A DNA stretch of 64,000 nucleotides, taken from NCBI GenBank assembly GCA_963666485.2, contig CAXXUO010000004.1, forward strand, positions 237,195-301,194. Direction: 5' to 3'. The stretch is from Syntrophorhabdaceae bacterium (lineage in GTDB: Bacteria; Desulfobacterota; Syntrophorhabdia; Syntrophorhabdales; Syntrophorhabdaceae). Shown here piece after piece: positions 9,988 through 63,490 of the stretch (its first letter is position 1; every line of letters begins with the position of its first letter). Below the pieces are notes generated by a model, which searched no databases, had not been told where the DNA came from, and saw only the letters and a list, made by a program, of their open reading frames with translations. Made by a program: the position numbers and the translations under genes.

Positions 9988-10050
9988 TACGCCTTTAGCC
10001 TTTAGCCTTTCGCCTTTCGCCGTCAGCCGTACGCCGTACGCCGTACGCCG
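9988..10050. repeat. Heptamer tandem array, 9 units of the TNNGCC(T/G) family, single arm
   Basis: TACGCCT TTAGCCT TTAGCCT TTCGCCT TTCGCCG TCAGCCG TACGCCG x3. Confidence 0.9.
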
Positions 10051-10055
10051 TTCTT

Positions 10056-11030
10056 TTAAAACCTTATCGCCAGCCCTCCCATAACCACGTCCGCGTCACG
10101 GTCGTTATCGGTTATGATGCGATGAAGTATCAGGCGGAGGCCGACATGCGGCGTGAACCGCACGGCCCCGGTGAGTGACATTGCTCCCAAAACTGCATCC
10201 CGATTGCTGTCCCCGTTGTCCCCGCTGTACCTGTCGTGTGAAAAATAGGGACCCGCGCCGATACCCAGTGCGATGCAGTCATGGAAGAACTCCCGTGCGA
10301 GCCATACCTCCGTCAGAATGCCATAACGGCCTACCGGCCTCTCGTTTCCCTCATGGAGATAGCCGATCGACCAATCCAGGTAACGGAATAGTTTTCTCCT
10401 GTACTCAACTGCCACCGGTGTAGACTCGCTATGGTCTATATTCAATGTCGTCCTTCCGATGTAGACATCGATCTCATTCTTTCCCGCGGTGAACGCATCC
10501 GAAGCTGATGTCTTTTCATCGCTGAGGAGGTAACCAACGCTGAACGTCAACCCGAGTGTGTCGAATTGATTGGAGGCATAAATATAATCCGCCCGCGTCT
10601 GCAGGATGACAGGGCTCAAACCGTACCACGTCGCCGCGATGCTCCCCACCGCTCCGACACCGTGTTTGATCTCTTTTTGATCATTTTCTCCGATCCTTGT
10701 GTCGGCGTACAGGTACGGTCCCGCCCCTGCCGCCATGGACAAGCGCGACTTTAACGGGGAGGTCCGCACCCATAACTGCGGGGTCAGCCCATCCCGCGCG
10801 TGATCGGGCACGTGCCCCTCGTTCAGATAGGTGATACTGAACATTGTGTTATCTGTAATTGCCTGTGAATACCCCCCGGCAGACCAATACGCGTGGGTAG
10901 TGCTGCTGCCCGTCGTGACGTCACGGCCGACACCGCCGCCCACGTAAAATATCTCCTCAGCCAAACAGGGGCCGGCCGGAAAGAGGACAATGAAGAGAAA
11001 TGCTGTGATCAATCTGTGGAATGTGTGCAC
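10056..11030 (-). CDS. Putative outer-membrane beta-barrel protein with internal duplication
   Basis: Signal-peptide-like N-terminus, amphipathic strands and C-terminal Phe (GLAIRF). Repeated YLNEGH..GAGPY and YLHEGN..GAGPY. Start uncertain (GTG 11030 or TTG 11072). Confidence 0.7.
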   Translation of the reverse strand: MHTFHRLITAFLFIVLFPAGPCLAEEIFYVGGGVGRDVTTGSSTTHAYWSAGGYSQAITDNTMFSITYLNEGHVPDHARDGLTPQLWVRTSPLKSRLSMAAGAGPYLYADTRIGENDQKEIKHGVGAVGSIAATWYGLSPVILQTRADYIYASNQFDTLGLTFSVGYLLSDEKTSASDAFTAGKNEIDVYIGRTTLNIDHSESTPVAVEYRRKLFRYLDWSIGYLHEGNERPVGRYGILTEVWLAREFFHDCIALGIGAGPYFSHDRYSGDNGDSNRDAVLGAMSLTGAVRFTPHVGLRLILHRIITDNDRDADVVMGGLAIRF

Positions 11031-11113
11031 AAATACAAGGCTAATGCAGGGGTTGGGGCATTTCTGTAGCAAAAACTACGATAATGCTGTCGTGAAAAAT
11101 AATGACAAAAGAG

Positions 11114-11320
11114 GGTTCAAGGTTCAAGGTTCAATGAAAGAAAAAAACAAAACCTTGGATCCCGGTGTCAAGCACCGGGATGACGGTAGAGAGTATGGGC
11201 CCCGGTGTCAAGGCACTGCAATTACCTCGCCCCGTCATCCCGGCGAAAGCCGGGATCCAGTGTCTTTTGCTTTTGGTTTACTTAGGGGAGCTTTGAACTT
11301 TGAACCTTGAACCTTGAACC
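11114..11320. repeat. Composite inverted repeat: (GGTTCAA)3 ... REP pair ... TTGAACT(TTGAACC)3
   Basis: Arms at 11114-11134 and 11293-11320; inverted CGTC-type palindromes at about 11155-11186 and 11232-11260. Confidence 0.9.
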
Positions 11321-11325
11321 ATTTT

Positions 11326-12318
11326 TTACGGTTTTCTTGCCTCTACCAGCCCATCCATCCTGTCACCGGTCCGCAACAGCCGTACGTTCCTGAACCCGGC
11401 CGCATGCAGATCTTTCTTTATCTCTTTGAACGTGTACGTATTCCCGCCCCGCGTGTTGACGAGCATGTTTATGGCAAAAAGGGTCCCGGGAACGGGAGTC
11501 GTCCGGTCCTCTTTCATAACATGGTCACGGATGAGTATTTTCCCGCCGGGAAGAAGGGCATTCAATGCCTTGCGGTAAAGCTCGACATTTTCCCGGGAAT
11601 CATTCTGGTGAATGATGGCCGACAGCAGGACGAGATCATGACCGCCGGGCAGGTCATCCTTGTAGAAATCACCTGCCGCCAAAGAGACGCGGCCGGTGAG
11701 GCCCTCCTTTTCCATCCGTGCACGGGCCATGGGGATGACGCCATCTCGGTCGAAGATGGTCGCTTGCAGTGACGGGTATTTCCGAAGAAAGGCTATCGTG
11801 TACGTTCCCGATGCGCCCCCGACATCCAGCAGTTTCTTACAGGGCCCGGCGTCATATGCGCCGACCAGTTCCTCTGAAAGGTCCCTGCCCACAACGTCCA
11901 TAGCGCCGATGAAGGCCTCGAGCGCCGCGGGTTCCATATGGTCCTCGTGCTTGCGTTTACCCCGCATTCCTTTCCTTACCATGGAAGAAAGGTCGCCCCA
12001 CGCATCCCAGACCCTGTTCATATGGAGCACCATGGGCAGGACGGATCCCGGGTGTTTGGACGACAGAAGTTCCCCCTTTTCGGTCAAAGAGTACATGCCG
12101 TCCTTTTTTCCGAGAAATCCGAGGCCGGCCAGTGCATCGAGCAATCTTTCGAGGGACCGCCTGTTGAAACCCGTTTGTTTGACCAACCCCGACAGTGTCG
12201 CGGGGGAACCGTCGAGATGCGTGAAGATATCGATCTCGGAACCGGTAAGAATGACCCTGCTCTTCATGAAACCGGTAATGTCGGACAGTAAAGCTGCGTG
12301 AGGCCCGTGATTTATCAT
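11326..12318 (-). CDS. SAM-dependent O-methyltransferase (dimerisation HTH + Methyltransf_2)
   Basis: LLDVGGASG, AGDF, LSAIIH and LLPGGKILI motifs; N-terminal winged-helix dimerisation region; SD AAGGA before ATG 12318. Confidence 0.9.
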   Translation of the reverse strand: MINHGPHAALLSDITGFMKSRVILTGSEIDIFTHLDGSPATLSGLVKQTGFNRRSLERLLDALAGLGFLGKKDGMYSLTEKGELLSSKHPGSVLPMVLHMNRVWDAWGDLSSMVRKGMRGKRKHEDHMEPAALEAFIGAMDVVGRDLSEELVGAYDAGPCKKLLDVGGASGTYTIAFLRKYPSLQATIFDRDGVIPMARARMEKEGLTGRVSLAAGDFYKDDLPGGHDLVLLSAIIHQNDSRENVELYRKALNALLPGGKILIRDHVMKEDRTTPVPGTLFAINMLVNTRGGNTYTFKEIKKDLHAAGFRNVRLLRTGDRMDGLVEARKP

Positions 12319-12369
12319 GATTCTTCCTTTTATTGTCACATTTCGCCGAGATATGCCCGGCGGCTTGAA

Positions 12370-12891
12370 CTAGCTCTGTCCCTGGTATATCGCCTTGAAC
12401 TCTTCGACAAGAAGAATGTTCAGGATGTCACGGACATTTTCGGGCGGCTGGCCATAAAAATGAAACTTCCCGTCGTTCGCCAGGAGACTGTACGTATGCT
12501 TTTTTACAGGATCATACAGGATGATTATCTGGCTTGCATCACACAGATGCGGCTTGCACGAGACGATCAGCACGAACTGCTGCTTGAACGCCTGGATCAT
12601 CCTGTTCTTGTTCGCCGCTGTACCGGTGAGCAGCCGGACCCATTCCTCGAACTTCCCTTCACGGGTCATTGCGGCGAACGATCTTTCGAATTCCTCCACC
12701 TTGAGCGTTTCCCAGGGGTACACGTCGTATTTCTTGTACTGGTCCGGAAAGGCGACGTATTCGATGACGACCTTGTTCTTGCCCTTCTTCGGCGCCGGGG
12801 CCTTGCCCTGTGACCCGGCAAGGTCAAAGCTGCCCGAAACGAGCAAGAATGCGACGATCGTGGCCAGGACAACGACTATCTTCTGTTTCAT
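12370..12891 (-). CDS. Exported Ivy-like (lysozyme/lytic transglycosylase inhibitor family) protein
   Basis: Signal peptide; CKPHLC loop resembling the Ivy CKPHDC motif, followed by a hydrophobic strand and a YG.P motif. Confidence 0.6.
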   Translation of the reverse strand: MKQKIVVVLATIVAFLLVSGSFDLAGSQGKAPAPKKGKNKVVIEYVAFPDQYKKYDVYPWETLKVEEFERSFAAMTREGKFEEWVRLLTGTAANKNRMIQAFKQQFVLIVSCKPHLCDASQIIILYDPVKKHTYSLLANDGKFHFYGQPPENVRDILNILLVEEFKAIYQGQS

Positions 12892-12921
12892 TACCGCCCC
12901 TTTTCCGGATGACTGTGGCCG

Positions 12922-13647
12922 TCACACATCGAGAAGATGCCCTTTTGACCTGAGCCATGCCTTGCTGTCCCTGTAAGACGGCAGCCTCGCTTCCACGTAA
13001 TCCCAGAATTTCCTCGAATGGTTCTTTATCTTTACGTGCGCAAGCTCATGGACAATGATGTAATCTATGATCCGATAGGGCGCCATCACGAGCCTGTAGC
13101 TGAAGGAAAGCCTGTTGTCGGATGAACATGAGCCATACCGCGTCCGGGCGCTTGTCACGCGTATGCCGTTAAAGGCGAGCCCCATGTCCCTCGCATAAAA
13201 AGCGACGCGTTCCGCAAAGATCTCACGCGCGCGCCTCTTGTACCACTCGACAAATATCTGCCTCACATCGGTGTTGTGGTCCCTGCGAAGAATGAACGCG
13301 CCATGGGAAAGGGCCAGCCGGGTCACGCGGTCCGGGGTTACTTGGAGCGGGTATTCCTCGCCGAGGTACAGGAATTTTTCCCCGGGTGCAAAACTCCTCG
13401 GCTCGTTCACATTCCTTCCCGACTCCCGGTATTCAATCAATTTTTTGTGGATCCACGGGACCTTGGAATTGAAAAACCGGTGGATCTCGTCCTTCGGGGT
13501 CCTGTCGGGGACCAAAATGACGACCGCCCCGCTGCGCTCCAGTTTCAGGGTCATCGTCCGTTTACGGTTCTTGCTGCGAACGACCCTGTAATTCAAGAAT
13601 TCTGTATCGCTAAAGAGAGAAGCCTGTTCCTCCACTTTCCCTCTCAT
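12922..13647 (-). CDS. YgjP/DUF45 family zinc metallohydrolase (often annotated as M48/SprT-like)
   Basis: RTRYGSCS and DYIIVHELAH..NHSRKFW. Confidence 0.9.
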   Translation of the reverse strand: MRGKVEEQASLFSDTEFLNYRVVRSKNRKRTMTLKLERSGAVVILVPDRTPKDEIHRFFNSKVPWIHKKLIEYRESGRNVNEPRSFAPGEKFLYLGEEYPLQVTPDRVTRLALSHGAFILRRDHNTDVRQIFVEWYKRRAREIFAERVAFYARDMGLAFNGIRVTSARTRYGSCSSDNRLSFSYRLVMAPYRIIDYIIVHELAHVKIKNHSRKFWDYVEARLPSYRDSKAWLRSKGHLLDV

Positions 13648-13667
13648 ATCCTTCCTGCCTTGAGTCG

Positions 13668-15050
13668 CTAGATCTCCAGTTCTTCGCCAAGATGGGGGAC
13701 ATACGTCGTCAGCCCCAGCCTTTCCCGGACGATCTGCTCAAATTCCAGGGCGACCGCTTCTTCACCGTGTACGATGTATACCTTCGGATTCGTTGTGAAG
13801 GTGCTCAACCATTCCAGCAGTTCACCCTGGTCCGCGTGGGCAGAGAATCCGCCGATCGTATGGACTTTCGCCCGTATCGCCATTTCCTCACCGAGAATAT
13901 ATGCCCTTTTCGACCCGTCGACAATGAGCCGGCCGAGCGTCCCGGGAACCTGGAAGCCGGTGAAGATGATGCTGCATTCCGGCCGCCAGATATTGTGCTT
14001 GAAATGGTGCCGTATCCTGCCGCCCTCGCACATTCCGCTGCCTGCAATGATAATGGCGCCTGACTTTATCTTGTTTATCTTCTGTGATTCCTCGATCGTG
14101 GTAGTAAAATGTATCTTCATCCCTTCCGCGCTCCTGAACTTGAACGCGTTGACAGCTTCGCCGTCGAAAAATTCCGGGTGCGACATATATATCTTCGTTG
14201 CCTTGTCGGCGAGCGGGCTGTCGATGTAGACGTCGAGGTCCTTGAGCCGGCCTTCCTTCACGAGCCTGTTCAGGATATACAGGACATCCTGTGTCCTCCC
14301 GACGGCAAAAGACGGCATCAACACGTTTCCCCCGTGCTTGAACGTGTCCTTGATCACCTGCGCCATTTCTTCGATGCTTGCCTCGAGGTCCTTGTGGAAA
14401 CGGTTGCCGTACGTGGATTCGACCACGACATAATCGGCCTCGGTGACGTGCTGCGGGTCCCGGATGATCGGGTTGCCGTTCTTCCCTATGTCCCCGGAAA
14501 AAACGATCTTCTTCTCTTTTCCCTTGTCCTTAAACCACAGCTCCAGGGTCGCCGAGCCCAGGATGTGGCCCGCATCGATGAGGCGGAATTTAACGCCGCC
14601 CGGCAATTCATGGACGGTGTCATAACCGTTGTGCTCAAAGTACGGAAGGCACGCCTTTACGTCGTCGGTCGTGTAGAGCGGTTCGAAGGTCTCGGTTTTT
14701 CCCGCCCTCAACGCCTTTTTCGTGTGCCATTCGGCATCTTTTTCCTGTATATGGGCCGAATCGAGAAGGATGATCTCGGCGAGCTCGGCCGTTGCGGACG
14801 TCGTTATTATCTTGCCCTTGAACCCTTCGGACACGAGCCGGGGGATAAGCCCGGAGTGATCGAGATGGGCGTGCGTAAGGAGCATAGTCTCCAGTTTGGC
14901 AGGCTCGAAACGGAACGGCTGCTCGTTCAGGACATCCGAGTGCCTTCCCTGGTTCATACCGCAGTCAACGATCATTTCCGTACCGTCCGTCACCAGTTCA
15001 AAACACGACCCGGTAACCTTCCTCGCCGCTCCCAAGAACCTGATCTTCAT
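13668..15050 (-). CDS. MBL-fold beta-CASP ribonuclease
   Basis: FLGAARKVTGSC, THAHLDHSG, AGHILGS, ESTYG, GSGMCEGGR, FSAHAD and VHGE motifs. Confidence 0.93.
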   Translation of the reverse strand: MKIRFLGAARKVTGSCFELVTDGTEMIVDCGMNQGRHSDVLNEQPFRFEPAKLETMLLTHAHLDHSGLIPRLVSEGFKGKIITTSATAELAEIILLDSAHIQEKDAEWHTKKALRAGKTETFEPLYTTDDVKACLPYFEHNGYDTVHELPGGVKFRLIDAGHILGSATLELWFKDKGKEKKIVFSGDIGKNGNPIIRDPQHVTEADYVVVESTYGNRFHKDLEASIEEMAQVIKDTFKHGGNVLMPSFAVGRTQDVLYILNRLVKEGRLKDLDVYIDSPLADKATKIYMSHPEFFDGEAVNAFKFRSAEGMKIHFTTTIEESQKINKIKSGAIIIAGSGMCEGGRIRHHFKHNIWRPECSIIFTGFQVPGTLGRLIVDGSKRAYILGEEMAIRAKVHTIGGFSAHADQGELLEWLSTFTTNPKVYIVHGEEAVALEFEQIVRERLGLTTYVPHLGEELEI

Positions 15051-15102
15051 TGTCACCCCGTTCTGATGAGTAGTCTGTCATTTAAAGGCTGAAAGTCATT
15101 TG

Positions 15103-15131
15103 ATTATACACAGGCGACCAATTCTTTACAA
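15103..15131 (-). promoter_or_regulatory. Putative sigma70 promoter of the beta-CASP operon
   Basis: Minus strand TTGTAA-17 nt-TATAAT. Confidence 0.6.
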
Positions 15132-15256: not shown

Positions 15257-15378
15257 CGTCATTCCGGTGCTTGACACCGGGGCCCAAGGTTTTGTTTTTA
15301 CTCGGTTTTCCCGTATTAAGAGCAACATGAACAACATGGAAAAAACCTTGGATTCCGGTGTCGAGCACCGGAATGACG
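15257..15378. repeat. Inverted pair of CGTC-type REP-like palindromes
   Basis: CGTCATTCCGGTGCTTGACACCGGGGCCCAAGG (15257-15289) and CCTTGGATTCCGGTGTCGAGCACCGGAATGACG (15346-15378). Confidence 0.85.
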
Positions 15379-15436
15379 GCGGGGGGAAGGATGGAAAGTT
15401 GTTAAGGTACCTGGCCGCGGGATGACGGCGTATCAA

Positions 15437-15486
15437 CCGTTCGCCGTTCGCCGTTCGCCGTTCCTTTCGCCTTTCGCCGTTCGCCT
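15437..15486. repeat. Heptamer tandem array (CCGTTCG/CCTTTCG), single arm
   Basis: About 7 units ending 6 nt before a -35 box. Confidence 0.85.
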
Positions 15487-15663: not shown

Positions 15664-16356
15664 ATGGACGCCTACCTGGCATCGGTTATTTTCGTCGTTC
15701 TCGCTGAAATGGGTGACAAGACCCAGCTTCTCGCCATGGCCTTCGCATCGCGGTTCCGGTGGCAGACGGTGCTTGCCGGCGTTTTTGTGGCGACGCTCGT
15801 GAATCACTTCATGGCCGTCGTCGCAGGAAACTATATGACGCGGATCATTCCCCTGCAGTACATCCAGATAGCGGCCGCCGCGTCCTTCATACTGTTCGGG
15901 CTCTGGACGATCCGCGGAGATACGCTGGAAGGTGAGGACAAACGCTTCAATTTCAGCCCGTTCTGGACGGTCGCCGTCGCATTCTTCATTGCAGAGATGG
16001 GGGACAAGACCCAGCTGGCAACCGTTGCCCTGGCAACCAAGTACAACAGCATCATTGTCGTGTGGCTCGGGACTACCACCGCGATGGTTATTGCCGACGC
16101 ATTGGGAATCATCATCGGCATCGTCCTCGGGAAAAAGATACCGGAGCGGGCCGTCAAATGGTTTGCAGCGATCGTTTTCATACTGTTCGGGGTGATCGGG
16201 CTCAAGGAATACCTGCCCCCGAAACACCTCACGGTGCCCGTGATGGCTGCAGGCATCGCCTTTATCATCCTCCTCATGTTCCTCGTTGCGAAGATGACCG
16301 ATTCCAAAAAGAAGAGGCTGGCCGAAGAGGCGGTCCCGGTCGACCCGGACGAATGA
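15664..16356 (+). CDS. TMEM165/GDT1 (UPF0016) family Mn2+/Ca2+ transporter
   Basis: Two AEMGDKTQL motifs; multiple TM helices; SD AGGAGG. Confidence 0.95.
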   Translation: MDAYLASVIFVVLAEMGDKTQLLAMAFASRFRWQTVLAGVFVATLVNHFMAVVAGNYMTRIIPLQYIQIAAAASFILFGLWTIRGDTLEGEDKRFNFSPFWTVAVAFFIAEMGDKTQLATVALATKYNSIIVVWLGTTTAMVIADALGIIIGIVLGKKIPERAVKWFAAIVFILFGVIGLKEYLPPKHLTVPVMAAGIAFIILLMFLVAKMTDSKKKRLAEEAVPVDPDE

Positions 16357-20776: not shown

Positions 20777-23583
20777 GCCGTTTCCGTGTTATCCCTTTTC
20801 AGTCCGACCTTATCGACGAAGCCGCCGGGATGATCACCGGTCCGTATGAAAATACCACGATCGTCTTCCCGGGAAGGCGCCCTTCCCTTTATCTCAAGGA
20901 AAACCTTGCGCGGCGTGCCGCGGGGGCCTTCTTCCCGCCGGTCTGTTTCTCCTTCGAGGATTTCATCGACCATCTCGCCCGCAGGAAATTCCCGGCACGC
21001 GAGGACATTGACGGTATCGACGCCATCTGGCTTATCTTCACGCTCATCACCACACTGCCGGTGTTTGACGGGCACCCTTTCCGCACGAAAAATTTCGGGG
21101 AATTCCTAAGCTGGGGAGCGCATCTTCTCAATTTCATCGAGCGCCTCGATATGGAAGATATCGGTAACGATGCCCTGGTCAATGTCGAACGCAATGCCGC
21201 CATAGGCTATGACATCCCGCAGAGCGTCAACGAATTGCTGGCTAATATATCGGCTGTGCGACAGGAATTTCACGCCGCCCTTGCCGCAGGTTCGTGGTTC
21301 ACACGGGGGACAAAACACCTGGCAGCCGCCGAAGAAGCGAAGACGGCATGGGGCCCGGACGCGGGGCACGTCCTCTTCGCGGGGATCTATGGACTGACGG
21401 GGACAGAAAAAAGCATCGTCAGGTCGCTTTGGGATGCCGGCCGGTGCGATGTTCTCGTGAGCGGCAGCCTCGATGAATGGCCGCTTCTTCATGAACTCGC
21501 GTCATATCTCAAGGCAACCCCGGACATAAGGGAAGATGCCGAAGTGAGACGCCCGGTGATCTATCTCCACTCGGGCCACGATACACACTCCGAAGCCCTC
21601 GAGGCATACCGGATAATACGGGGGGGCGGCCCCGGGCCGTGGGCCGTTATCCTTCCGGCCGCGGAATCCCTCTTCCCTGTACTGGATCTCGTTGCTGACA
21701 GAATCGATGTCCCCTGTAATATTTCACTCGGATACCCGATGGAGAGAACGGCCCTTTTCGGGCTCATCCGCAATATCCTCGACGCCGCATGCGCCCGGGG
21801 CCCGGACGGGCTCTACCCGGTCAGCCTCTACCTCGACGTTGTGCTGCACCCGTTCGTCAAGAACATGTTTTCCGGTACCGACCTGCGCAGACTGCTGCTT
21901 TACGTCGAGCGGTCACTCTCGGGCGATACGAACGATGCGTCCCTGACAGGCCGTTCGGCCGTTCTCCCCGACGAGATCGAGACTTTTGTCTCGTCTCCGG
22001 GCAGCGGCGCTTTCGATGCCGGGTCGATCGATGCCCTGAAAAGGATCCACACGCTTCTCTTCCGCAACCTCGCCGCCTCGGCCACGATACACGATGTTGC
22101 GATGAACCTCGAAAATATTCTTGAGGCCGTGCTCGATGCGACCGGGATCAGGTCTTACGCACTGTCGGGGCCCATGTTCACCAGCTTGTTCAGGGCACTC
22201 GAGGCTTTGAAAAGGACCCTCTTCGCAAAAGAGGTACTGTCCGGCAACCCGGCACAAAATGCCCGGGCCCTTCACGAGATCGTTCTCGGCCGCCTCACAA
22301 TGGCCGGCATTCCATTCGATACCCATCCCATAGAGGAACTCGAGATACTCGGCATGCTCGAGGCGCGTACCATCTCCTTTGAAAGGCTCGTCATGCTCGA
22401 TGTCAACGAGGGCGTTCTGCCGGGCCCGCGCCAGGTGAACCCGGTCGTCCCCATCGGGGTCTTCGAAACCATCGGCATCCCCACGCCCGAGTTCAGCGAG
22501 GCCATATACCGCTACAATTTTTACCGGCTCACCGGAAGTGCCCGGGAGGTCCATCTTGTATTCCGGGGGAGCGTCGACCGGCAGAGAAGCCGCTACATCG
22601 AAGAGATCGTGTGGCGCGAAGAAAAAAAGCAAAAGATGCTGAACGTTATGCCGGTCGGGCAGACCATCATGCAGGTCAACTTAAAACGCGATATCCTCCC
22701 GCCGGCCATTGAAAAGACGCCGTCTGTTATTTCGGCGCTCTCCGTGAGGGGTTTTTCACCGAGCATACTCGACGCGTATATCGCATGCCCGCTCTTTTTC
22801 TATTTCACGCGCCTCATCGGCCTTGAGGAGCACGAGGGTTTCTCGACCGATATAGACGCGACGAGCCGCGGGGATATCGTCCACCGCATCCTGTACGATA
22901 CCTTCCTGCCCTTGCAGGGGATGCCCCTGACGCGGGAGATAGAGGATACTATCCTCGGAAGCCTCGACAACGCCCTCAAAAAGCATTTCACAGAAAACTC
23001 CAATTCAGGGGAATACTACCTCTTCCGAGGAATGGCGCAGTACAAGCTCCGGTCGTTCGTGAAGACCCATCTGAAAAATTGCGAGGAACCGTTCATCGTG
23101 CAATACCTCGAAGAGAAACTTGCCGCACCGTTTCTCGTGGACGGCGTGCCGGTAAACCTGTCGGGCAAGGTCGACCGGATCGATTGCGATACGACGGGGA
23201 CAGCATTCACCGTCAACGATTACAAAACAGGCGGGGGCCGCGGGCAATATCCGGCCGGGGTACTCAAAAAGACCGATTTCCTCGACATCGCATCGATACA
23301 CGAGCGCGTGCCTTCTTTCCAGCTTCCCGTCTACATAAATATCTTCTCCTCCGCAAAAAACATCCCGATCGAAAACATAAACGCGCGCCTCATCCTCCTC
23401 GGAAAGAACACCGAGGAACAATTTTACAAACCGCGGCAGGATAGCAGGGCGGACCTCATCGCCGCATACACGGAAGGCATAAGGACCGTTGTCGCTCATA
23501 TGCTCAACCCCGACATTCCCTTCGCCGCATTCGATACGAAGAGATGCATGCAGTGCAGCGTGCGGGATATGTGTCATGTGTGA
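20773..23583 (+). CDS. addB: AddB-like PD-(D/E)XK nuclease with Fe-S Cys motif
   Basis: ATGA overlap with addA; VFPGRR, SPSILDAYIACP, GKVDRID..DYKTG, C-terminal CMQCSVRDMC. Confidence 0.88.
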   Translation: MSRFRVIPFQSDLIDEAAGMITGPYENTTIVFPGRRPSLYLKENLARRAAGAFFPPVCFSFEDFIDHLARRKFPAREDIDGIDAIWLIFTLITTLPVFDGHPFRTKNFGEFLSWGAHLLNFIERLDMEDIGNDALVNVERNAAIGYDIPQSVNELLANISAVRQEFHAALAAGSWFTRGTKHLAAAEEAKTAWGPDAGHVLFAGIYGLTGTEKSIVRSLWDAGRCDVLVSGSLDEWPLLHELASYLKATPDIREDAEVRRPVIYLHSGHDTHSEALEAYRIIRGGGPGPWAVILPAAESLFPVLDLVADRIDVPCNISLGYPMERTALFGLIRNILDAACARGPDGLYPVSLYLDVVLHPFVKNMFSGTDLRRLLLYVERSLSGDTNDASLTGRSAVLPDEIETFVSSPGSGAFDAGSIDALKRIHTLLFRNLAASATIHDVAMNLENILEAVLDATGIRSYALSGPMFTSLFRALEALKRTLFAKEVLSGNPAQNARALHEIVLGRLTMAGIPFDTHPIEELEILGMLEARTISFERLVMLDVNEGVLPGPRQVNPVVPIGVFETIGIPTPEFSEAIYRYNFYRLTGSAREVHLVFRGSVDRQRSRYIEEIVWREEKKQKMLNVMPVGQTIMQVNLKRDILPPAIEKTPSVISALSVRGFSPSILDAYIACPLFFYFTRLIGLEEHEGFSTDIDATSRGDIVHRILYDTFLPLQGMPLTREIEDTILGSLDNALKKHFTENSNSGEYYLFRGMAQYKLRSFVKTHLKNCEEPFIVQYLEEKLAAPFLVDGVPVNLSGKVDRIDCDTTGTAFTVNDYKTGGGRGQYPAGVLKKTDFLDIASIHERVPSFQLPVYINIFSSAKNIPIENINARLILLGKNTEEQFYKPRQDSRADLIAAYTEGIRTVVAHMLNPDIPFAAFDTKRCMQCSVRDMCHV

Positions 23584-23773
23584 CGGCTAACGGCGAACGG
23601 CTAACGGCGAACGGGAAAAACAGACCGAGATGGAAGCCTTTCGAGTCTGTATGTACGATTCACCGAGATGGTTTCAATCTGACTATCCTGTATGATCGAA
23701 ACCTTTACATTGAGCCTTTTGTTTTTAGCCTTTAGTCTTTTGCCGTTAGCCGTTAGCCGTTAGCCGTTAGCCG
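23584..23773. repeat. Inverted heptamer arms (CGGCTAA/CGGCGAA)4 ... (TTAGCCG-type)7
   Basis: Left arm 23584-23614 starts right after the addB stop; right arm 23725-23773. Confidence 0.88.
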
Positions 23774-27076: not shown

Positions 27077-27321
27077 CGTCATTCCCGCCAAGTGGGAATC
27101 CAGCATCTTTGGTTTTTTAAGTACACCGCATAACATCCCCCGTCCCGTCATTCCCGCGAAGCGGGAATCCAGCGTCTTTTTCTTTGTTTTCAGTGTTCAG
27201 ATAGAGTAGACAACGGGTAAGGCACCGCTGGTGACCAAACGTTCGTCTTAATATACAGTGAGTATTCATCCGAAAAAAACAAAAAGCAAAGACACTGGAT
27301 TCCCGCTTCGCGGGAATGACG
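27077..27321. repeat. Three CGTC-type REP-like palindromes (two direct, one inverted)
   Basis: CGTCATTCCCGC..GGGAATCCAG at 27077-27103 and 27146-27172; 27295-27321 is the exact reverse complement of the second copy. Confidence 0.9.
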
Positions 27322-27403
27322 GAGGAGTGTGGATTGCGGGAAGTGGGGATGATGGAGGAGTGGGGATGATGGAGGAGTGTGGATTGCGGGAAGTGGGGAT
27401 GAT
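27321..27403. repeat. 33-bp G-rich direct repeat x2 with a 17-bp partial copy between
   Basis: GGAGGAGTGTGGATTGCGGGAAGTGGGGATGAT at 27321-27353 and 27371-27403. Confidence 0.85.
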
Positions 27404-27463
27404 GGAGCTTTAAGTATGGAATCGGGAGGATTTTTCTGTTATAAGGTACAAGGAGGAAATTCC

Positions 27464-34871: not shown

Positions 34872-35077
34872 CGTCATCCCGGGCTTGACCCGGGACCCAA
34901 GGTTCACCCCCCCCCGTCATCCCGGGCTTGACCCGGGACCCAAGGTTCACCCCCCCCGTCATCCCGGGCTTGACCCGGGACCCAAGGTTTTGTTTTTTAT
35001 GATTCTTTTTTCATTTGGTCATTGCTAAAGGATTCAAAAGAAAAACCTTGGGTCCCGGCTCGGAGGCCGGGATGACG
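34872..35077. repeat. Tandem triplicated CGTC-type palindrome plus inverted partner
   Basis: CGTCATCCCGGGCTTGACCCGGGACCCAAGGTT starting at 34872, 34915 and 34957; inverted CCTTGGGTCCCGG..CCGGGATGACG at 35046-35077. Confidence 0.92.
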
Positions 35078-38238: not shown

Positions 38239-38257
38239 CCTGTTTCGTTTTTTTTCT

Positions 38258-38348
38258 TTCGCCTTTCGCCTTTCGCCTTTCGCCTTTCGCCTTTCGCCTT
38301 TCGCCTTTCGCCTTTCGCCGTTAGCCGTTAGCCGTTAGCCGTTAGCCG
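38258..38348. repeat. Heptamer tandem array, 13 units: (TTCGCCT)8 TTCGCCG (TTAGCCG)4
   Basis: Read directly; abuts the acsE stop codon. Confidence 0.95.
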
Positions 38349-39244: not shown

Positions 39245-39311
39245 GGTTCAAGGTTCAAAGTTCAAGGTTCGGGCTTTCCCGGCCTTGAACTTTGAACCTT
39301 GAACCTTGAAC
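39245..39311. repeat. Inverted heptamer arms forming a perfect 23-bp stem between acsC and acsE
   Basis: GGTTCAAGGTTCAAAGTTCAAGG (39245-39267) is the exact reverse complement of 39283-39305. Confidence 0.95.
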
Positions 39312-40672: not shown

Positions 40673-40746
40673 ATAGGCTATGGGCGATAGGCAATGGGCA
40701 ATGGGGGGGACTTCCCTTATCGCCTATCGCCTATCGCCTATCGCCT
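40673..40746. repeat. Inverted heptamer arms (RGGCNAT)4 ... (ATCGCCT)4 between acsB and acsC
   Basis: Left arm 40675-40702, right arm 40719-40746. Confidence 0.88.
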
Positions 40747-47772: not shown

Positions 47773-47911
47773 GGGCGATGGGCGATGGGCGATGGGCGAT
47801 GGGAAAAACAAAAAACAAATTATCGATATTCTTTACCCCATTGCCCATTGCCCATCGCCTATCGCCTTCTATTTTTTTCCTCTTGCCCATTGCCTATCGC
47901 CCATCGCCTAT
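47773..47911. repeat. Heptamer arms (GGGCGAT)4 ... two (ATYGCCY) arrays, the last overlapping the acsV stop
   Basis: Arrays at 47773-47803, 47837-47867 and about 47884-47911. Confidence 0.88.
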
Positions 47912-49825
47912 CATCTTTACCGTCTCCGGAAACATTTTCTCATCCGTATGGGGGAGGAACATTGCCGCCATGAACTCATGCATGAACTGCGTGTTGCCGG
48001 AAAGCTCTATGTTCGTCATCGATCGCGCTATATCGGCGGCCTTTTCGTAAAAGCAGCGCGATAAAGCGGCCATCCGCGCGCCGCCGAGCGAGGCGTTCCC
48101 CATGAACCGGAAACGGCTGACCGGGAGCTCGGGAAGAAGCCCGATGATCATCGCCTTTTCTATGTCGATCGAATGGCCGAATCCCCCTGCTATGATCACC
48201 GACTCGAGGTCTGTGAAATGTATGCCCCCGTTCTGGAGAAGGACCGTGCATCCGGCATACACCGCGCCCTTTGTCCTCATGATATTGTCGAGATCTATCT
48301 CGGTCAGCACTATATCCCGCTCGATCCCGGTCTCAGAGGCAAAGCAGAGAACGTACTCCATTCCGTTTGCGCCCTGCCGCAGGCGCCTGCCCTCTTTCCG
48401 CACGGAGAATTTCCCATTCCTGTCGATAGCCCCGGCCATGAAAAGCCCGGCCACGAGATCGATCAGTCCCGACCCGCATATCCCGAGCGGCCGGGCGCGG
48501 CTGATCGTGAGCAGCATCGGCTCGAGCGTCACCGGATTGATATGGACCTTTTCGATCGCCCCGGGCGCGGCCCGCATGCCGAACTCAATGCCGCCTCCCT
48601 CGAAGGCCGGCCCGGCGGAACACGATGCGCACAGGAGCCATTCATCGTTCCCGAGCACGATCTCGCCGTTCGTCCCGATGTCCATGAAGAGCGATATCCC
48701 TTTCTGTTCCGTCATTCCCGACAGGGCGACCCCCGAGACGATATCGCCGCCGACGTACGACGAGACCCCGGGGACCGAATAAACCCGCGCATCGAGTTCC
48801 GGCATGAACCCGAGGTCACGAGCATCCCAGGGAGAAAACGATGCGGCCGCAGGGGTGTACGGCGCCAGCATGATGTGCGTGGGGTCGATGCGGTAAAAGA
48901 GGTGCATCATCGTCGTATTCCCGGCGACGACGATATGCGTGACATCCGCGGCATCGATCTTCGCCTCCCGTATGATCTCCGAGATAAGCCCGTTTATCGT
49001 CGCGACGACCACGTCGTGGAGTTTTTTGAGCCCCCGGCGTTTCCGGCAATACATTATCCGCGTGATAACGTCTTCCCCGAAGCTGATCTGCCTGTTGTAA
49101 TCCGTAGAGGATGCGACGACCTCAGGGCCGGCGGATAAGGACCGGCAGTCGATAAGTTCCGCAGAAATGGTCGTTGTCCCGATGTCGACCGCGACCGCAT
49201 AATGCATATCCTCGCGATCTCCCCGGGCAATGCGGATGATCTCACATGCATCCCCGGCAACATCCGCGGTCACCATCCATTGCGCCTCGCGCAGGTTGAG
49301 GCTGAGATCGCGCAGAACGCTCGGCCGCATCGCGGGTTCGTCACAATCAGCCCTGGCTGAAACAGCACGTGCGACGCGCGCGGCATCCGAAATGTTATCG
49401 TTGATATCGGGACGCGGAAGCTCACAGTAATACCGCCCCACCAGGGGTTCCTGCCCGCAGCTTTGCAGCACGGCAGCATCCGCAGAAGCATTCAGCTCAT
49501 TCAATATAACGGTGCGTGTGAGGACGCTCCTGTCGATCTGGGATTCGAGAGGGACCTCGATCACGGCATCCCCCGTTATCGCAGAATTGCACGCAAGACT
49601 AAACCCCATCGCCCGGTCAGCCTCGGAAAGGAGCGGGCTCGACGCTGAATCTACAGACCCGCCGGCGATACGGACCCTGCATTTGCCGCACACACCCCGG
49701 CCCCCGCACGAGGCATTGATGTGCACCCCGGCCTGCAGCGCTATCTCGAGAAGGTTCTCTCCCTTTGCAGCCGGATAGACCCTGTCTATCGGCAGAAACT
49801 TTATCCTGTATTCTTCTTCTGGCAT
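47894..49825 (-). CDS. acsV: Reductive activator of corrinoid protein (RACo/AcsV; 2Fe-2S + ASKHA ATPase)
   Basis: CGGRGVCGKC..LAC ferredoxin domain; DIGTTT, GNTTM, DIGTNGE, SAGPAFEG, GICGSG, AGGFG and FLPHTD. Confidence 0.92.
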   Translation of the reverse strand: MPEEEYRIKFLPIDRVYPAAKGENLLEIALQAGVHINASCGGRGVCGKCRVRIAGGSVDSASSPLLSEADRAMGFSLACNSAITGDAVIEVPLESQIDRSVLTRTVILNELNASADAAVLQSCGQEPLVGRYYCELPRPDINDNISDAARVARAVSARADCDEPAMRPSVLRDLSLNLREAQWMVTADVAGDACEIIRIARGDREDMHYAVAVDIGTTTISAELIDCRSLSAGPEVVASSTDYNRQISFGEDVITRIMYCRKRRGLKKLHDVVVATINGLISEIIREAKIDAADVTHIVVAGNTTMMHLFYRIDPTHIMLAPYTPAAASFSPWDARDLGFMPELDARVYSVPGVSSYVGGDIVSGVALSGMTEQKGISLFMDIGTNGEIVLGNDEWLLCASCSAGPAFEGGGIEFGMRAAPGAIEKVHINPVTLEPMLLTISRARPLGICGSGLIDLVAGLFMAGAIDRNGKFSVRKEGRRLRQGANGMEYVLCFASETGIERDIVLTEIDLDNIMRTKGAVYAGCTVLLQNGGIHFTDLESVIIAGGFGHSIDIEKAMIIGLLPELPVSRFRFMGNASLGGARMAALSRCFYEKAADIARSMTNIELSGNTQFMHEFMAAMFLPHTDEKMFPETVKMIGDGR

Positions 49826-52586: not shown

Positions 52587-52679
52587 CCTTCGATTCCGGC
52601 GTCAAGCGTTGGAAGGACGGCGGAGGAATGATAGTTCGCCTTTAGCCTTTTGCCGTTCGCCGTTCGCCGTTAGCCGTTA
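52587..52679. repeat. Degenerate CGTC-type palindrome followed by a heptamer array (TTNGCCT/TTNGCCG)
   Basis: CCTTCGATTCCGGCGTCAAGCGTTGGAAGGACGG at 52587-52620; about 6 heptamers at 52635-52679. Confidence 0.75.
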
Positions 52680-57883: not shown

Positions 57884-57990
57884 TTCAAGGTTCAAAGTTC
57901 AAGGTTCAAAGCTAAACAAACTGCAACAAAACCCCTTTTTCAGGGGAGCTTTTGGTTTTTAGCTTTGAGCTTTGAGCTTTGAACTTTGAA
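57884..57990. repeat. Inverted heptamer arms (TTCAARG)4 ... (CTTTGAR)4
   Basis: Arms at 57884-57913 and 57961-57990. Confidence 0.88.
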
Positions 57991-58095
57991 CGTTCTTTTA
58001 GTTGGATTGAGGGGAGCTGCCGATACAGTCCCCCCAATTTTGGCAGACGCCGGCCGTATATACGGGGTACGACCGGTGATGAACTATTGTAATGC

Positions 58096-60308: not shown

Positions 60309-61178
60309 TTACGGTTTTTGCACGGACCGTGATCCGGTAAGGAAATTCATGATGTCTTTTATCATATCATTGCCAATAATGAGAGGCCAGTCGTTGTGTC
60401 CGGCGTGCGGGATGACCCACATCCGTTTTTGCCCTGCATAAGAGTCAAACAGCGCCCTGGCATGTCCGACCGGGATGATATCGTCGAGCCCGGCACCAAC
60501 GATCGCCACTTTCTTACTGTACGTCCTGAGGTTCGCCACGCTGTCATAGCGGTCCTTCAGGGCGAGGCCGACGATAAAGGACGGGGCCCTTTCGCGGGCC
60601 ACGGATGCAAGCGTATCCCAGGGCGTAAAGAGGAGTATCCCCTCCACGGAGACCGATGTATGCCCGGCAAGCCACGTTACGACACCACATCCCAGCGATT
60701 CACCAATGAGGTAGATGGGTCCGCCGAATTCGTTGAACGCAAGATGCAGCGTCTCTCTGGCGGCATTGAGAAAAACCCTCTCGCCGGGTTTACCCGGCCG
60801 GCCGCCATAGCCCGGGTACTCGGCCAGGATGACGCGATACCCGAGCGGCCGGAACATCCCGGTATAAAAGTCACGATCGGCCGCACTGCCTGCATTGCCA
60901 TGAAAAACGATGATCGTCCCCTTCACATCACCGATCGCGACGGTGTCGATGAGGCCGTGGTAATTATCCCCGTAAGATCTCCAGAATGCCAGGTGGGCTG
61001 CATTGAGGGCCTTAGCTGAGGGCCGGGCCTTATCGGGAAAATAAAGGAAGTGGTCCTGAACGTTGCACCCGAAGACTATGAAGGAGAATAAGAATATAAT
61101 GCACAGACCGGAGGCCTTACTTCCCGGCCCGGGCTGAAACGATGCATGGGGGACTCTTGCTTTGGCTCGGCAAAGCAT
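60309..61178 (-). CDS. Alpha/beta hydrolase (possible lipoprotein; true start probably downstream of 61178)
   Basis: FHGNAG, EYPGYG, nucleophile GESLG and GHND; lipobox-like VFGC. Confidence 0.85.
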   Translation of the reverse strand: MLCRAKARVPHASFQPGPGSKASGLCIIFLFSFIVFGCNVQDHFLYFPDKARPSAKALNAAHLAFWRSYGDNYHGLIDTVAIGDVKGTIIVFHGNAGSAADRDFYTGMFRPLGYRVILAEYPGYGGRPGKPGERVFLNAARETLHLAFNEFGGPIYLIGESLGCGVVTWLAGHTSVSVEGILLFTPWDTLASVARERAPSFIVGLALKDRYDSVANLRTYSKKVAIVGAGLDDIIPVGHARALFDSYAGQKRMWVIPHAGHNDWPLIIGNDMIKDIMNFLTGSRSVQKP

Positions 61179-61218
61179 ACTAATCTATAGTATACACTGG
61201 TATTCAGAAGGAGGGCAC

Positions 61219-61776
61219 ATGAAACATATCAACCTCGTCCTGCTTGCATTATTGGTCGCACTCGCGCTGGCTCACCCGGGGCCCGCATTGGCCGACACGG
61301 AAATGCCTCCGACCGATTATACGAAAGAGACGGAGGACGGCAAATATGTTTTCGTTATGCTTGCTCCCGAAAGCCCGCACCGGGGCGCATCGAGAAATAC
61401 GGAGATACGTGCGCTCTACAAACATTCAGGATTGTATGTCAAGGACGGCCCTTACGATCCTTTATGGACAGTCTACTGGTATTCATTCGCCGTATATCCG
61501 GCCTCCGATGGAAAACATGTCGTCAGGATGGGGCCCTGGGCGCAGGCAACAAGCGACCTGGCCATTGCTTTTTACGAGAACGGCAAAGAACTGAAACAAT
61601 ACGCGATCTCGGACCTCGTTAAAGACACCGATAGGTTGCGCCGCACGGTCAGCCATTTCTTCTGGCGTACGGACCTCAGGTACGACGATAAGGAAGGAAC
61701 GGTGTTTCTGAAAACTGTCGACGGGATCTCCTATACATTTTCTGTAAAGACGGGCGAAATAGTAGACAAGAAATAA
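61219..61776 (+). CDS. Exported hypothetical protein
   Basis: SD AAGGAGG; signal peptide ending ALA-D; beta-rich composition. Confidence 0.8.
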   Translation: MKHINLVLLALLVALALAHPGPALADTEMPPTDYTKETEDGKYVFVMLAPESPHRGASRNTEIRALYKHSGLYVKDGPYDPLWTVYWYSFAVYPASDGKHVVRMGPWAQATSDLAIAFYENGKELKQYAISDLVKDTDRLRRTVSHFFWRTDLRYDDKEGTVFLKTVDGISYTFSVKTGEIVDKK

Positions 61777-61938
61777 TGACATAAACCTCCTGTTTTTTGC
61801 CCGAGGAAAGGTGTATACTATAAATATGACCGATCAACCTCGTATCGTTGCCGGATTGTTCGCGGGTTGGTCATTACGGGATAACATAATAATTACAGGC
61901 ATATCACAAGCGAGTTCTTACCAAAGGGAGTTTTGAGA

Positions 61939-62235
61939 ATGAGCGTCGCAGAATTCATCGAATTAAGAGAGAGCATCGAGGCTCTCGCCGGGCAGTTAGC
62001 CGTCTCCATTAAAGACAAAAATGTTGAGGTCTCAAAAAAACGTCTGGAAGAAGCAAGTCAAAAACTGGACCGATTGAAAACCATGGTTTCCACAGACGTT
62101 CAGGTCATCGTCTCTGAACGCCTCACACGCCAGTTATCGGGATTATCCGAAAAGCTCGAAACAATGGCAGCCAAAAAACCGGCCAGAAAAACCTCGGTAA
62201 GAAAGAAAGCAGTGAAAAAAGAAGCGAAAGAATAA
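61939..62235 (+). CDS. Small helical hypothetical protein with a Lys-rich tail
   Basis: SD GGGAG; coiled-coil-like body; AAKKPARKTSVRKKAVKKEAKE tail. Start is TTG 61933 or ATG 61939. Confidence 0.7.
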   Translation: MSVAEFIELRESIEALAGQLAVSIKDKNVEVSKKRLEEASQKLDRLKTMVSTDVQVIVSERLTRQLSGLSEKLETMAAKKPARKTSVRKKAVKKEAKE

Positions 62236-62245
62236 AAAGATTCCG

Positions 62246-62553
62246 GGTTCAAGGTTCAAGGTTCAAGGTTCAAGGTTCCGGGTTCAAGGTTCAAGGTTCA
62301 AGGTTCAAGGTTCAAGGTTCAAGGTTCAAGGTTCAAGGTTCAAGGTTCAAGGTTCAAGGTTCAAGGTTCAAGGTTCAAGGTTCAAGGTTCAAGGTTCAAG
62401 GTTCAAGGTTCAAGGTTCAAGGTTCAAGGTTCAAGGTTCAAGGTTCAAGGTTCAAGGTTCAAGGTTCAAGGTTCAAGGTTCAAGGTTCAAGGTTCAAGGT
62501 TCAAGGTTCAAGGTTCAAGGTTCAAGGTTCAAGGTTCAAGGTTCAAGGTTCAA
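62246..62553. repeat. (GGTTCAA)44 tandem array (one GGTTCCG variant unit)
   Basis: 308 bp = 44 x 7; variant at 62274-62280. Confidence 0.97.
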
Positions 62554-62642
62554 AGAAAAAACAAAGATATAATTGTTTTAAATGCAAGTAAAAACCGCAT
62601 GATTTTCGAATCATGCGGTTTTTTTTCAAAATCCGGTTTTTC

Positions 62643-62671
62643 CCTGGAACCTGGAACCTGGAACCTGGAAC
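62643..62671. repeat. (CCTGGAA)4 inverted partner arm of the long array
   Basis: Reverse complement is (TTCCAGG)4, one mismatch per unit to the GGTTCAA repeat. Confidence 0.8.
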
Positions 62672-62677
62672 GTTTTT

Positions 62678-63223
62678 CTAATGCTTGAACTCCCAGTTCA
62701 AGTTCTGGACTGCATCCACGACCATGCCCGTGCCCGTTGCCAGCAGGAGGACGTCCTGTGCGACGCGGACGTACTTGGTGTTCGGGGGCGGTGGGCCCAG
62801 CTGGACCACAAGGCTGGATGGCAGCGGGTACGCGACGACACCAGCCGGCAGGGGCTTGCCGACTGCCCATTTTTTGGCCTGGCCCGGAGGCATGCACCCG
62901 TTCTGTTTCTTGGCAAGCCCCGGAGGGCATCCCTTGCCATGTTTGTACTGGCCGGCGTAATAATTGTTTATGATCACCCGTTTATCATCCGTGAAGTACT
63001 TGTGGTGTTCGCCGTCCTTTCCCTTGTCTTTGTGTTTATCCTGGCCTTTTCCGTGAGAATCGTCATCCGGTTGGCCCTTTGGGTCCGACACCGCCGCATC
63101 GCCGGATTTGTTCTTGCCTCCTCCTGCCCATGGCGGTTTACCCGCGAAAGCAGAACCTGCGATCAGGCACACAACCAGTAATACGATCAGGGCGAGACTT
63201 TTTCTGAGATAAATTTTTTTCAT
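62678..63223 (-). CDS. RcnB-like exported protein (CPPGLAKK family)
   Basis: Signal peptide; His/Lys/Asp-rich linker; CPPGLAKKQNGCMPPGQAKKW..G.PLP; SD AAGGAGG. Confidence 0.8.
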   Translation of the reverse strand: MKKIYLRKSLALIVLLVVCLIAGSAFAGKPPWAGGGKNKSGDAAVSDPKGQPDDDSHGKGQDKHKDKGKDGEHHKYFTDDKRVIINNYYAGQYKHGKGCPPGLAKKQNGCMPPGQAKKWAVGKPLPAGVVAYPLPSSLVVQLGPPPPNTKYVRVAQDVLLLATGTGMVVDAVQNLNWEFKH

Positions 63224-63336
63224 CGCTGCCTCCTTTGATCAAAAGTCCGGGCCTTCGCGGCATCTGACCGCAAAAGACCTTTCCTACCCCTCCCATACAG
63301 GTAACAGAAAGCGGCGGCGCATGCAAACAAAAAAAC

Positions 63337-63490
63337 AGTTCAAAGTTCAATGTTCAAGGTTCAAGGTAAAAAAGAAGAAAAGAAAAAAGGCCGATGAATT
63401 CGGCCTTTGTATTTGAATAATTAATGCCCGGTTTATCGGGGCACTACCTTATGTTTTCTGCATTGAACCTTGAACATTGAACCTTGAACC
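63337..63490. repeat. Inverted heptamer arms (NGTTCAA)4 ... (TTGAACN)4 enclosing a terminator
   Basis: Arms at 63337-63364 and 63463-63490. Confidence 0.9.
63368..63408 (-). terminator. Intrinsic terminator downstream of the dodecin gene
   Basis: Minus strand AAAGGCCGA-ATTCA-TCGGCCTTT followed by TTTCTTTTCTTCTTTTTT. Confidence 0.7.

Follow-up and report, generated by a model that had tools for sequence, protein, structure and literature searches.

The stretch of DNA analyzed here (the window, 64,000 nucleotides of a Syntrophorhabdaceae genome) carries twelve intergenic loci built of tandem 7-bp units and a gene content which includes an acetyl-CoA synthase cluster. It corresponds to C4:237195-301194 of the source genome G000, which measures 3.77 Mb in 10 contigs, is 99% complete, and is probably Syntrophorhabdus-like, as judged in part from a Syntrophorhabdus homologue of its four-helix-bundle protein; the other G numbers used below denote genomes of relatives, C numbers are contigs of G000, and L numbers are compared loci. 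Heptamer STRR repeats occur in cyanobacteria. According to our analysis, the loci of the window belong to a genome-wide population of hairpins with a constant anatomy, namely two inverted heptamer arms of fixed polarity placed at stop codons, which occur at gene ends in filled, empty, absent, and flipped states and as close copies beside unrelated genes. On balance, we favor reading them as REPIN-like, nonautonomous DNA hairpins that derive from the arms of a gene-bearing cassette, are predicted to be recognized by a pentameric protein of the PF05635 family, and would depend on another enzyme for their transfer to gene 3' ends and to hairpins already in place.

Chance or plain slippage as the origin of the arrays is excluded by the excess of period 7, the matched pairing, and the fixed polarity. 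The period survey of G000 returned 501 arrays of period 7, whereas the remaining periods between 4 and 12 gave 0 to 19 apiece at the same cut-off. In the set of 549 arrays used for the pairing test, 126 of the 182 neighbors within 300 bp are inverted matches, compared with 19.7 ± 4.3 (maximum 32 in 300) after permutation of the units, and reversed occurrences of the 20 left-arm unit classes are absent. With left-type units learned from these 126 pairs, the 653 arrays obtained at a lower cut-off divide into 326 left-type and 327 right-type arrays, whose 243 neighbors within 300 bp comprise 193 inward-facing, 28 and 22 same-direction, and 0 outward-facing combinations. The units of the two arms agree within one base in 152 of the 193 inward pairs (null, 45.9). 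The preliminary description of the window had held that slippage is insufficient for matched, oriented pairs, a view borne out by both the period-7 excess and the comparison with permuted controls. The same 653 arrays include 356 of the GGTTCAA family and 268 of the ACGGCTA family; exactly four units are present in 202 of the 301 GTTC-family arms having three or more units, and the modal arm accordingly measures 4 units, or 28 bp. Three pairs of the window fold with z values of -6.7 to -9.0, and no known RNA family was matched by Rfam within the window.

All twelve loci reported in the window are present, within a few bases of where they had been placed (Table 1). The orientation is as constant as had been claimed, but the accompanying rule that units read GG-Y first is only approximate, given units such as CGTTCCA, CGTTCTA, AGTTCAA, GGAGTAA, and CGTAAAA; no universal base rule for the polarity emerged, purine content failing for CGTTCTA. 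Both arms of a pair come from the same family throughout the window, as described, whereas genome-wide 13 of the 193 inward pairs are hybrids. Similarly, the statement that every loop is different holds for most of them but not for all, as CGTC/NTS-type repeats recur in 41 of 209 loops and two subfamilies have near-identical loops. Four lone right arms had been listed and do exist; two of them, at 9991 and 38256, nevertheless have the standard orientation, each trailing the stop codon of a gene on the minus strand, and have lost their partner.

The median distance of the outer array edges is 6 nt for gene 3' ends (n = 156) and 68 nt for gene 5' ends (n = 92). Relative to the 3118 genes called in G000, arrays occupy 114 of 381 convergent, 197 of 2348 codirectional, and 36 of 379 divergent junctions, and only 23 of 549 array midpoints fall inside a called gene. 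The stop codon and the last codons of the upstream gene are often supplied by the arms themselves (clpB ends at L148, L149, L146, and L164; C9:223660, C3:160641, and C1:1230287).

The filled form of the cassette contains a four-helix-bundle gene. G000 has two TIGR02436/PF05635 genes, both of low GC content and missed by our gene caller, one enclosed by ACGGCTA arms and the other by GGTTCAA arms, i.e., by the two dominant unit families of the genome. Both lie outside the window, where 0 of the 12 loci hold such a gene. That similar arrays flank four-helix-bundle genes had been mentioned in the preliminary description and agrees with these two loci; of the other enclosed genes suggested there, GxxExxY and GIY-YIG genes are present but sit in other inverted repeats, and reverse transcriptase has no RVT_1 match. 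Besides the PF05635 loci, no same-unit pair of up to 2.5 kb encloses a called gene, and no cognate transposase bounded by heptamer ends was found in such pairs, with the provision that the caller misses some low-GC genes. By sequence, the protein matches 2GSC and 2RLD, and its structural model (pLDDT 93) is predicted to fold like XCC0516 and like Avd, the accessory protein of diversity-generating retroelements (TM 0.73-0.86 to Avd; PDB 4DWL and 8UB7), to which it is 14-15% identical. As far as the accessible text of the papers cited here goes, structures of PF05635 proteins have been solved with no function assigned, XCC0516 is a toroidal homopentamer (PMC4990558), and Avd is a positively charged pentamer working with a reverse transcriptase (PMC6182149).

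The association between gene and arms extends far beyond this genome. Of 80 homologous four-helix-bundle loci from many phyla, 59 have an array of period 7 no more than 300 bp away; it is present on both sides in 30 and forms an inverted pair in 29. Distant control positions gave 5 of 80, and no other period exceeded 4. A quick tree was built from 99 proteins, 80 of them with an arm class. Along this tree the arm class changes 11 times, against 34.5 after shuffling, and GG(C/T) arms are carried by 10 of the 11 rows in the supported clade of the first G000 protein, which unites Bacteroidota, Nitrospirota, Verrucomicrobiota, and the present family. These sequence comparisons show that gene and arms travel together, although tracking alone is no proof that the protein reads the heptamer word. 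A TIGR02436 match, in some cases partial, is found in 19 of 19 same-genus genomes and in 82 of 151 genomes of the phylum. A conserved AAGTAATA motif, possibly the promoter of the gene that follows it, lies 10-60 nt 5' of many four-helix-bundle genes in the genus (L034, L040, L041, L044, L047-L049, L051, L055, and L002); of its 43 occurrences in G000, 4 are within 200 bp of an array and one belongs to the gene itself, so that the empty loops do not keep this motif.

Copies of gene-less cassettes can be recognized directly. Subfamily B consists of a 94-nt loop found at 8 loci of G000 (79-97% identity over 36-88 nt), 5 of which retain both arms and some of which are split by nested inserts; the five complete cassettes are 79-94% alike. 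Subfamily A consists of a long ACGGCTA arm together with 51-60 nt, present at five gene ends (86-93%), including those of argJ, clpB, and a gene which we take to be lon. The flanks of 10 subfamily A and B copies, when compared, show no similarity, which implies that gene-less cassettes and half-cassettes have been copied between unrelated gene ends. Neither core was found in the sampled DNA of relatives. Moreover, a 22-31-nt piece of the loop of the window pair at 23583-23773 recurs in two other loops of G000. In places, an arm is duplicated in tandem along with its inner flank, and the resulting two or three copies resemble higher-order REPIN arrays (C9:187009-187223, C10:72201-72480, C1:696726-697115, and C9:14298-14684).

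When 26 gene-bearing loci from relatives were mapped onto G000, several of them revealed changes of state at orthologous gene ends, those beyond the cases named here being uninformative. Three filled loci, of G017, G035, and G039, map to places where the flanks are adjacent in G000 and carry no arms. Three others, of G008, G016, and G012, share one flank, with the gene in G012 running opposite to that in G008 and G016, and the corresponding gene end in G000 holds an empty GGTTCAA pair (C9:14459-14684). Another three share a junction at which G018 and G001/G002 carry the gene in opposite orientations, synteny being broken in G000; the gene ends that face each other across this filled cassette in G018, G001, and G002 lie on separate contigs of G000 (C1:47836 and C2:573567), one of them with an arm, which places a rearrangement breakpoint at the cassette. 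Three further gene-bearing loci adjoin the filled locus of G000 itself, two of these three having a broken gene, and two loci map to a G000 junction occupied by an empty GxxExxY-type repeat. The idea of empty or nonautonomous cassettes, put forward from the window alone, thus gains support from the filled, empty, and absent states at orthologous gene ends and from the close gene-less copies at unrelated loci. The genomes closest to G000 are 88-92% identical to it in AcsC, a metagenome scan for strain-level relatives returned none closer than 91%, and a comparison at the level of reads yielded only contig joints at 85% likeness, which is weak evidence.

The junctions of the acetyl-CoA synthase cluster allow turnover to be followed across the genus. 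Between acsB and acsC, arms are present in all 17 same-genus genomes with data (15 clear pairs and 2 partial ones, judged by eye) and belong to six unit families; between acsC and acsE they are present in 18 of 18 same-genus genomes, again with varying units. The 12 genomes of other genera have arms in 0 cases at the former junction and in 4 at the latter, all of one genus. After argJ, arms or remnants occur in 17 of 19 genomes (some of period 9 and one hybrid), with none in G007 and a GxxExxY-type repeat in G013. After clpB, a plain GC-rich terminator is found in 10 of 14 same-genus genomes and in the outgroup G023, and ACGGCTA arms replace it in the four closest relatives and in G000. Of 12 orthologous pairs that differ in their units, 11 have unrelated loops, and nested heptamer pairs exist; together with the CGTC repeats found in 8 of the 13 hybrid pairs, the unit swaps, unrelated loops, and nested pairs fit repeated insertion into or over an existing hairpin. 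A general route by which arms would have wrapped around old terminators was considered and rejected, as plain terminator-like hairpins are present in only 11 of 103 loops. Three side observations concern the same junctions. In genomes of family f3, a cobalamin riboswitch (RF00174) stands between acsB and acsC in place of the heptamer hairpin (L024:1275-1452 and L025:1195-1374). In G003, the heptamer loop at this junction contains about 550 bp that resemble, by eye, a transposase fragment (L008). Arms of period 9 (and 8) with the same layout occur in G013, G015, G012, G019, and G004 (L021 and L019 between acsB and acsC; L133 and L140 after argJ; L043 and L046), some of them nested in or paired with 7-mer arms and some framing four-helix-bundle genes.

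We picture the following cycle as the most likely model. The full cassette would be a PF05635 gene between heptamer arms, of which the gene-less copies would be derived, nonautonomous DNA units. The pentameric protein is predicted to recognize the repeat stem, and another enzyme would cut and join, with copies going to gene 3' ends and into existing hairpins. A new cassette may land in or over an older hairpin, whose arms would subsequently be removed by deletion between repeats, a course of events that would account for lone arms and hybrids as well as for nested pairs and swapped units. Slippage probably stretches some arms, up to 50 units, and copying from arm to arm may keep the two arms matched. 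The cell presumably tolerates the cassettes since their long stem, with its A/T-rich feet, would serve as a terminator in both directions or as a 3'-end stem. Such cassettes are also a likely origin of the heptamer repeats that have lacked an explanation in many bacteria. More tentatively, and as a possibility which we would not ourselves bet on, the PF05635 pentamer may be the core that reads the sequence in a class of mobile hairpins not described before, in which each protein clade reads a 7-base word of its own, written in arms of about four units, and licenses the copying of gene-less cassettes onto transcript ends and the overwriting of terminators, and which accounts for much of the heptamer excess across bacteria as well as for the open reading frame (ORF)-bearing intervening sequences of rRNA.

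Several results weigh against this proposal. Most loops are unique, and recent copying is consequently shown for only about 13 of some 300 loci. No target-site duplication was detected, direct repeats in 193 outer flank pairs measuring 3.23 against 3.16 ± 0.05, although such a duplication could have decayed in old copies. Species agree strongly in which junctions are occupied, as would also be expected of structures that are inherited and under selection: G000 and G002 have 14 occupied junctions in common among the 218 orthologous ones compared, a further 11 being occupied just in G000, 2 just in G002, and 191 in neither (p = 1e-13), and of 194 compared with G013, 6 are occupied in both, 21 in G000 only, and 9 in G013 only. 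One of the 12 orthologous pairs with changed units kept its loop, which whole-cassette replacement leaves unexplained. The protein model has no recognizable nuclease fold, and neither Y1_Tnp/RAYT (PF01797) nor RVT_1 has a match in G000; with no catalyst identified, a mobile system is inferred from distribution rather than from an enzyme. The tree is a quick one in which kin share labels, and cotransfer alone explains the tracking of arm class. The link from gene to bursts of arrays across the phylum is weak: in samples of 100-420 kb, inverted pairs occur in 4 of 7 gene-bearing genomes (1, 1, 0, 0, 0, 9, and 3) and in 0 of 6 without the gene, G029 and G040, which have weak partial TIGR02436 matches, being counted among the latter. 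G031 has arms and no TIGR02436 match, and the arm unit of the G013 gene is absent among the arrays listed for that genome. Finally, empty loops contain no gene remnants; a six-frame search with a 25-protein profile recovered the two intact genes only, the next best hit scoring 7.8 bits, and excludes the empty loops being decayed four-helix-bundle genes.

An improbable alternative makes RNA the working unit, as in the rRNA intervening sequences which carry this gene, with the stem cut out by RNase III, an Avd-like pentamer binding the RNA, and reentry at transcript 3' ends via a borrowed reverse transcriptase. The intervening sequence of Coxiella, with its 28-bp heptamer stem and excision by RNase III (PMC4990558), resembles the modal arm of 28 bp found here; the partnership of the Avd pentamer with a reverse transcriptase (PMC6182149) would suit a protein whose model matches Avd; insertions hug stop codons, and a terminator-like run of U closes the copies of subfamily A. 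Against this stand the lack of an RVT_1 match in a genome that is 99% complete and the intact state of both arms in subfamily B copies. Nor is there any sense-strand bias, as G-U pairs number 30 on the sense strand and 48 on the antisense strand and the T tails are alike on both (4.7 and 4.9 of 10), which gives no sign of RNA as the selected form. The repeat-built RNA hairpin system that had been offered as an alternative for the window finds no positive support in these counts.

We deem it unlikely that the hairpins are immobile terminators or processing stems of the host, homogenized by slippage, with arms matched by template switching and a stem kept by selection while its word drifts, the gene being a passenger or a reader. 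The conserved occupancy of junctions across the genus would follow from such an origin, as would the heptamer pair standing in place of the relatives' plain terminator after clpB, the presence of at least 5 T in the 10 nt behind 66% of right arms, and the one pair that swapped its unit and kept its loop. It leaves unexplained, however, the close whole copies at unrelated genes, the nested pairs, the single period and single polarity shared by some 20 unit classes, the gain and loss of the gene-bearing form, and the unrelated loops in 11 of 12 changed-unit pairs; pairs are also found within the acsB-acsC-acsE gene run.

Hitchhiking, to which we likewise give little credence, would have Ssn-like nucleases with CGTC/NTS repeats, or IS110 elements, open or recombine nested hairpins and carry the arms along, the four-helix-bundle protein having no role in spread. 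In G000 the CGTC/NTS-type motif has 623 matches, and CGTC repeats, rather than heptamer arms, frame the four small GIY-YIG genes in what appears to be an Ssn-like system. CGTC repeats are present in 8 of 13 hybrids compared with 41 of 209 loops overall, one Ssn-like gene (C3:76010) sits inside a hybrid heptamer pair, and an array lies within 300 bp of the matched domain in three of the four IS110-family copies, which have equal scores (C2:601059, C3:257904, C5:5096, and C8:114309). Nevertheless, 168 of the 209 loops have no CGTC repeats, the cores of subfamilies A and B do not need CGTC, and heptamer arms frame four-helix-bundle genes in many phyla. A G-quadruplex nature of the arrays, of the kind put forward for the Xanthomonas GGGAATC repeats, which likewise show a four-unit mode and inward-facing pairs near stop codons (PMC4692102), is most improbable, because common units (CGTTCCA, CGTTCTA, AGTTCAA, and GGTTCAA) carry only one or two consecutive G yet share the same mode and polarity.

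The heptamer cassettes are not the only repeat-framed system of this genome. A GxxExxY gene has a long inverted repeat of its own, which also occurs in empty copies (18 motif matches in G000) and, at shared gene ends, stands in alternation with the heptamer cassettes. An inverted-repeat family with a GGGACGTCC-led motif (41 matches) and a rarer one (5 matches) are nested in heptamer loops (C1:703213-704066, C1:1230280-1230848, C2:639070-639420, and C6:103871-104160). Several repeat-framed gene systems (heptamer, CGTC/Ssn, and GxxExxY type) thus compete for the same gene ends. The window itself additionally contains a gene for an MBL-fold beta-CASP nuclease (13668-15056), whose best NCBIfam scores are below the cut-off.

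Table 1. Heptamer loci of the window and examples of other repeats (window positions unless a contig or locus label is given)
Feature	Position	Strand	Context
Lone arm, ACGGCTA/AAGGCTA family	9991..10051	-	5 nt past stop of minus-strand gene ending at 10056; partner lost
Empty GGTTCAA pair	11114..11320	.	Arms 11114-11134 and 11291-11320; two CGTC/NTS-type palindromes nested in loop
Lone arm, ACGGCGA family	15437..15485	-	Adjoins CGTC-type repeats; faces upstream region of GDT1 gene at 15664
Empty ACGGCTA pair	23583..23773	.	Begins at stop of addB-like gene, ends ahead of tatD
Lone 13-unit arm	38256..38348	-	Immediately past acsE stop codon
Minimal GGTTCAA pair	39245..39311	.	acsC/acsE junction; -47 kcal/mol, z -9
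Minimal GGCGATA pair	40673..40746	.	acsB/acsC junction
GGCGATG pair	47773..47912	.	Overlaps acsV stop; right arm duplicated (47837-47867, 47883-47912)
Lone arm, ACGGCTA family	52634..52679	-	Ends at TTGACA box 5' of sensor kinase gene
GGTTCAA pair	57884..57991	.	Convergent junction, directly behind plain terminator-like hairpin
GGTTCAA/GGTTCCA pair	62246..62671	.	Left arm 44 units GGTTCAA, right arm 4 units GGTTCCA; plain two-way terminator-like hairpin in loop
GGTTCAA pair	63337..63490	.	Inner flanks A-rich and T-rich
CGTC/NTS-type palindromes	11157-11262, 15300-15430, 27312-27407, 34872-34989, 52590-52625
GxxExxY-type repeat	C1:1409219-1409566		L003
GxxExxY-type repeat	C1:1385231-1385703
GxxExxY-type repeat	L125		G013, after argJ

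Heptamer repeats have long been described, with no agreed origin (PMC4679880 and PMC4692102). The accessible text of these two reports invokes quadruplexes or a control of translation and does not name a four-helix-bundle gene, the TAACTGA repeats of Beggiatoaceae being presented with no mention of four-helix-bundle or S23 genes (PMC4679880). Our literature search found no paper joining heptamers and four-helix-bundle genes as a dispersed genome-wide element, a result on which supplements could bear. Already published are inverted four-unit pairs in Xanthomonas (PMC4692102) and heptamers in one rRNA intervening sequence (PMC4990558). What is new here is the gene-less cassette copies, the state changes at orthologous ends, the six unit families at one junction, the replacement of the clpB terminator, and the tracking of protein clade by arm class. 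G000 ties heptamer repeats to PF05635 through countable events, namely the recent copying, gain, loss, and flipping of cassettes and the replacement of a terminator in one clade, and it offers two natural protein/arm pairs, with sister clades using different words.

Among known heptamers, the GGGAATC repeats of Xanthomonas form 70-75 inward-facing pairs per genome with a four-unit mode near stop codons and were read as quadruplexes (PMC4692102). The arrays described here share the period of 7 and the position at gene ends with these, with the Nostoc heptamers (PMC4692102), and with the Beggiatoaceae repeats (PMC4679880), but they do not have a G tract of three or more in every unit, and, unlike the published heptamers, many unit families coexist and replace each other in this genus. 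In Coxiella, a 28-bp terminal stem with heptamer repeats surrounds a member of the same gene family in an intervening sequence excised by RNase III (PMC4990558). Two G000 loci resemble such ORF-bearing 23S rRNA intervening sequences (S23p) in holding a PF05635 ORF in the loop of a heptamer stem of about 28 bp (PMC4990558), whereas the cassettes are flanked by protein-coding genes and nearly all are without the gene. With the diversity-generating retroelements they would share, judging from the model, the fold of Avd, at low identity and with no reverse transcriptase match in G000. Miniature inverted-repeat transposable elements and nonautonomous insertion sequences are similar in their inverted terminal repeats and dispersed near-identical copies, as in subfamilies A and B, most other loops being unique; they differ in that the cassettes show neither a target-site duplication nor a cognate transposase in the same-unit pairs searched.

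The closest parallels are found in two repeat-framed gene systems, as characterized in the accessible parts of the respective papers. REPINs are extragenic inverted doublets with variable hairpin spacers, accompanied by low-copy RAYT genes framed by the same repeats, with one repeat group per gene (PMC3337134 and PMC3733652), and REPs lie near gene 3' ends and are enriched between convergent genes (PMC3733652). Heptamer pairs similarly number in the hundreds, are extragenic, inverted, and hairpin forming, have variable spacers, lie near 3' ends with enrichment at convergent junctions, and come with one or two genes of low copy number that the repeats themselves frame, each gene having one repeat group. 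They differ in that the arms are tandem 7-mers instead of palindromic REPs, that the framed gene is PF05635 and not a HUH transposase, and that hybrids exist, none being seen among the REPINs of P. fluorescens SBW25 in the text consulted. Ssn nucleases with their NTS/SRM (CGTC) repeats share the repeat-gene-repeat layout and the many gene-less repeats, but the repeat is different, and Ssn is a catalytic GIY-YIG protein (PMC11893778), while the heptamer-framed protein has no known activity. The element departs in at least one tested feature from each of REPINs, Ssn, intervening sequences, miniature inverted-repeat transposable elements, and diversity-generating retroelements, and it works most like REPIN/RAYT and NTS/Ssn, apparently as a repeat-framed gene with many empty hairpins in which the repeats are tandem 7-mers and the protein is noncatalytic.

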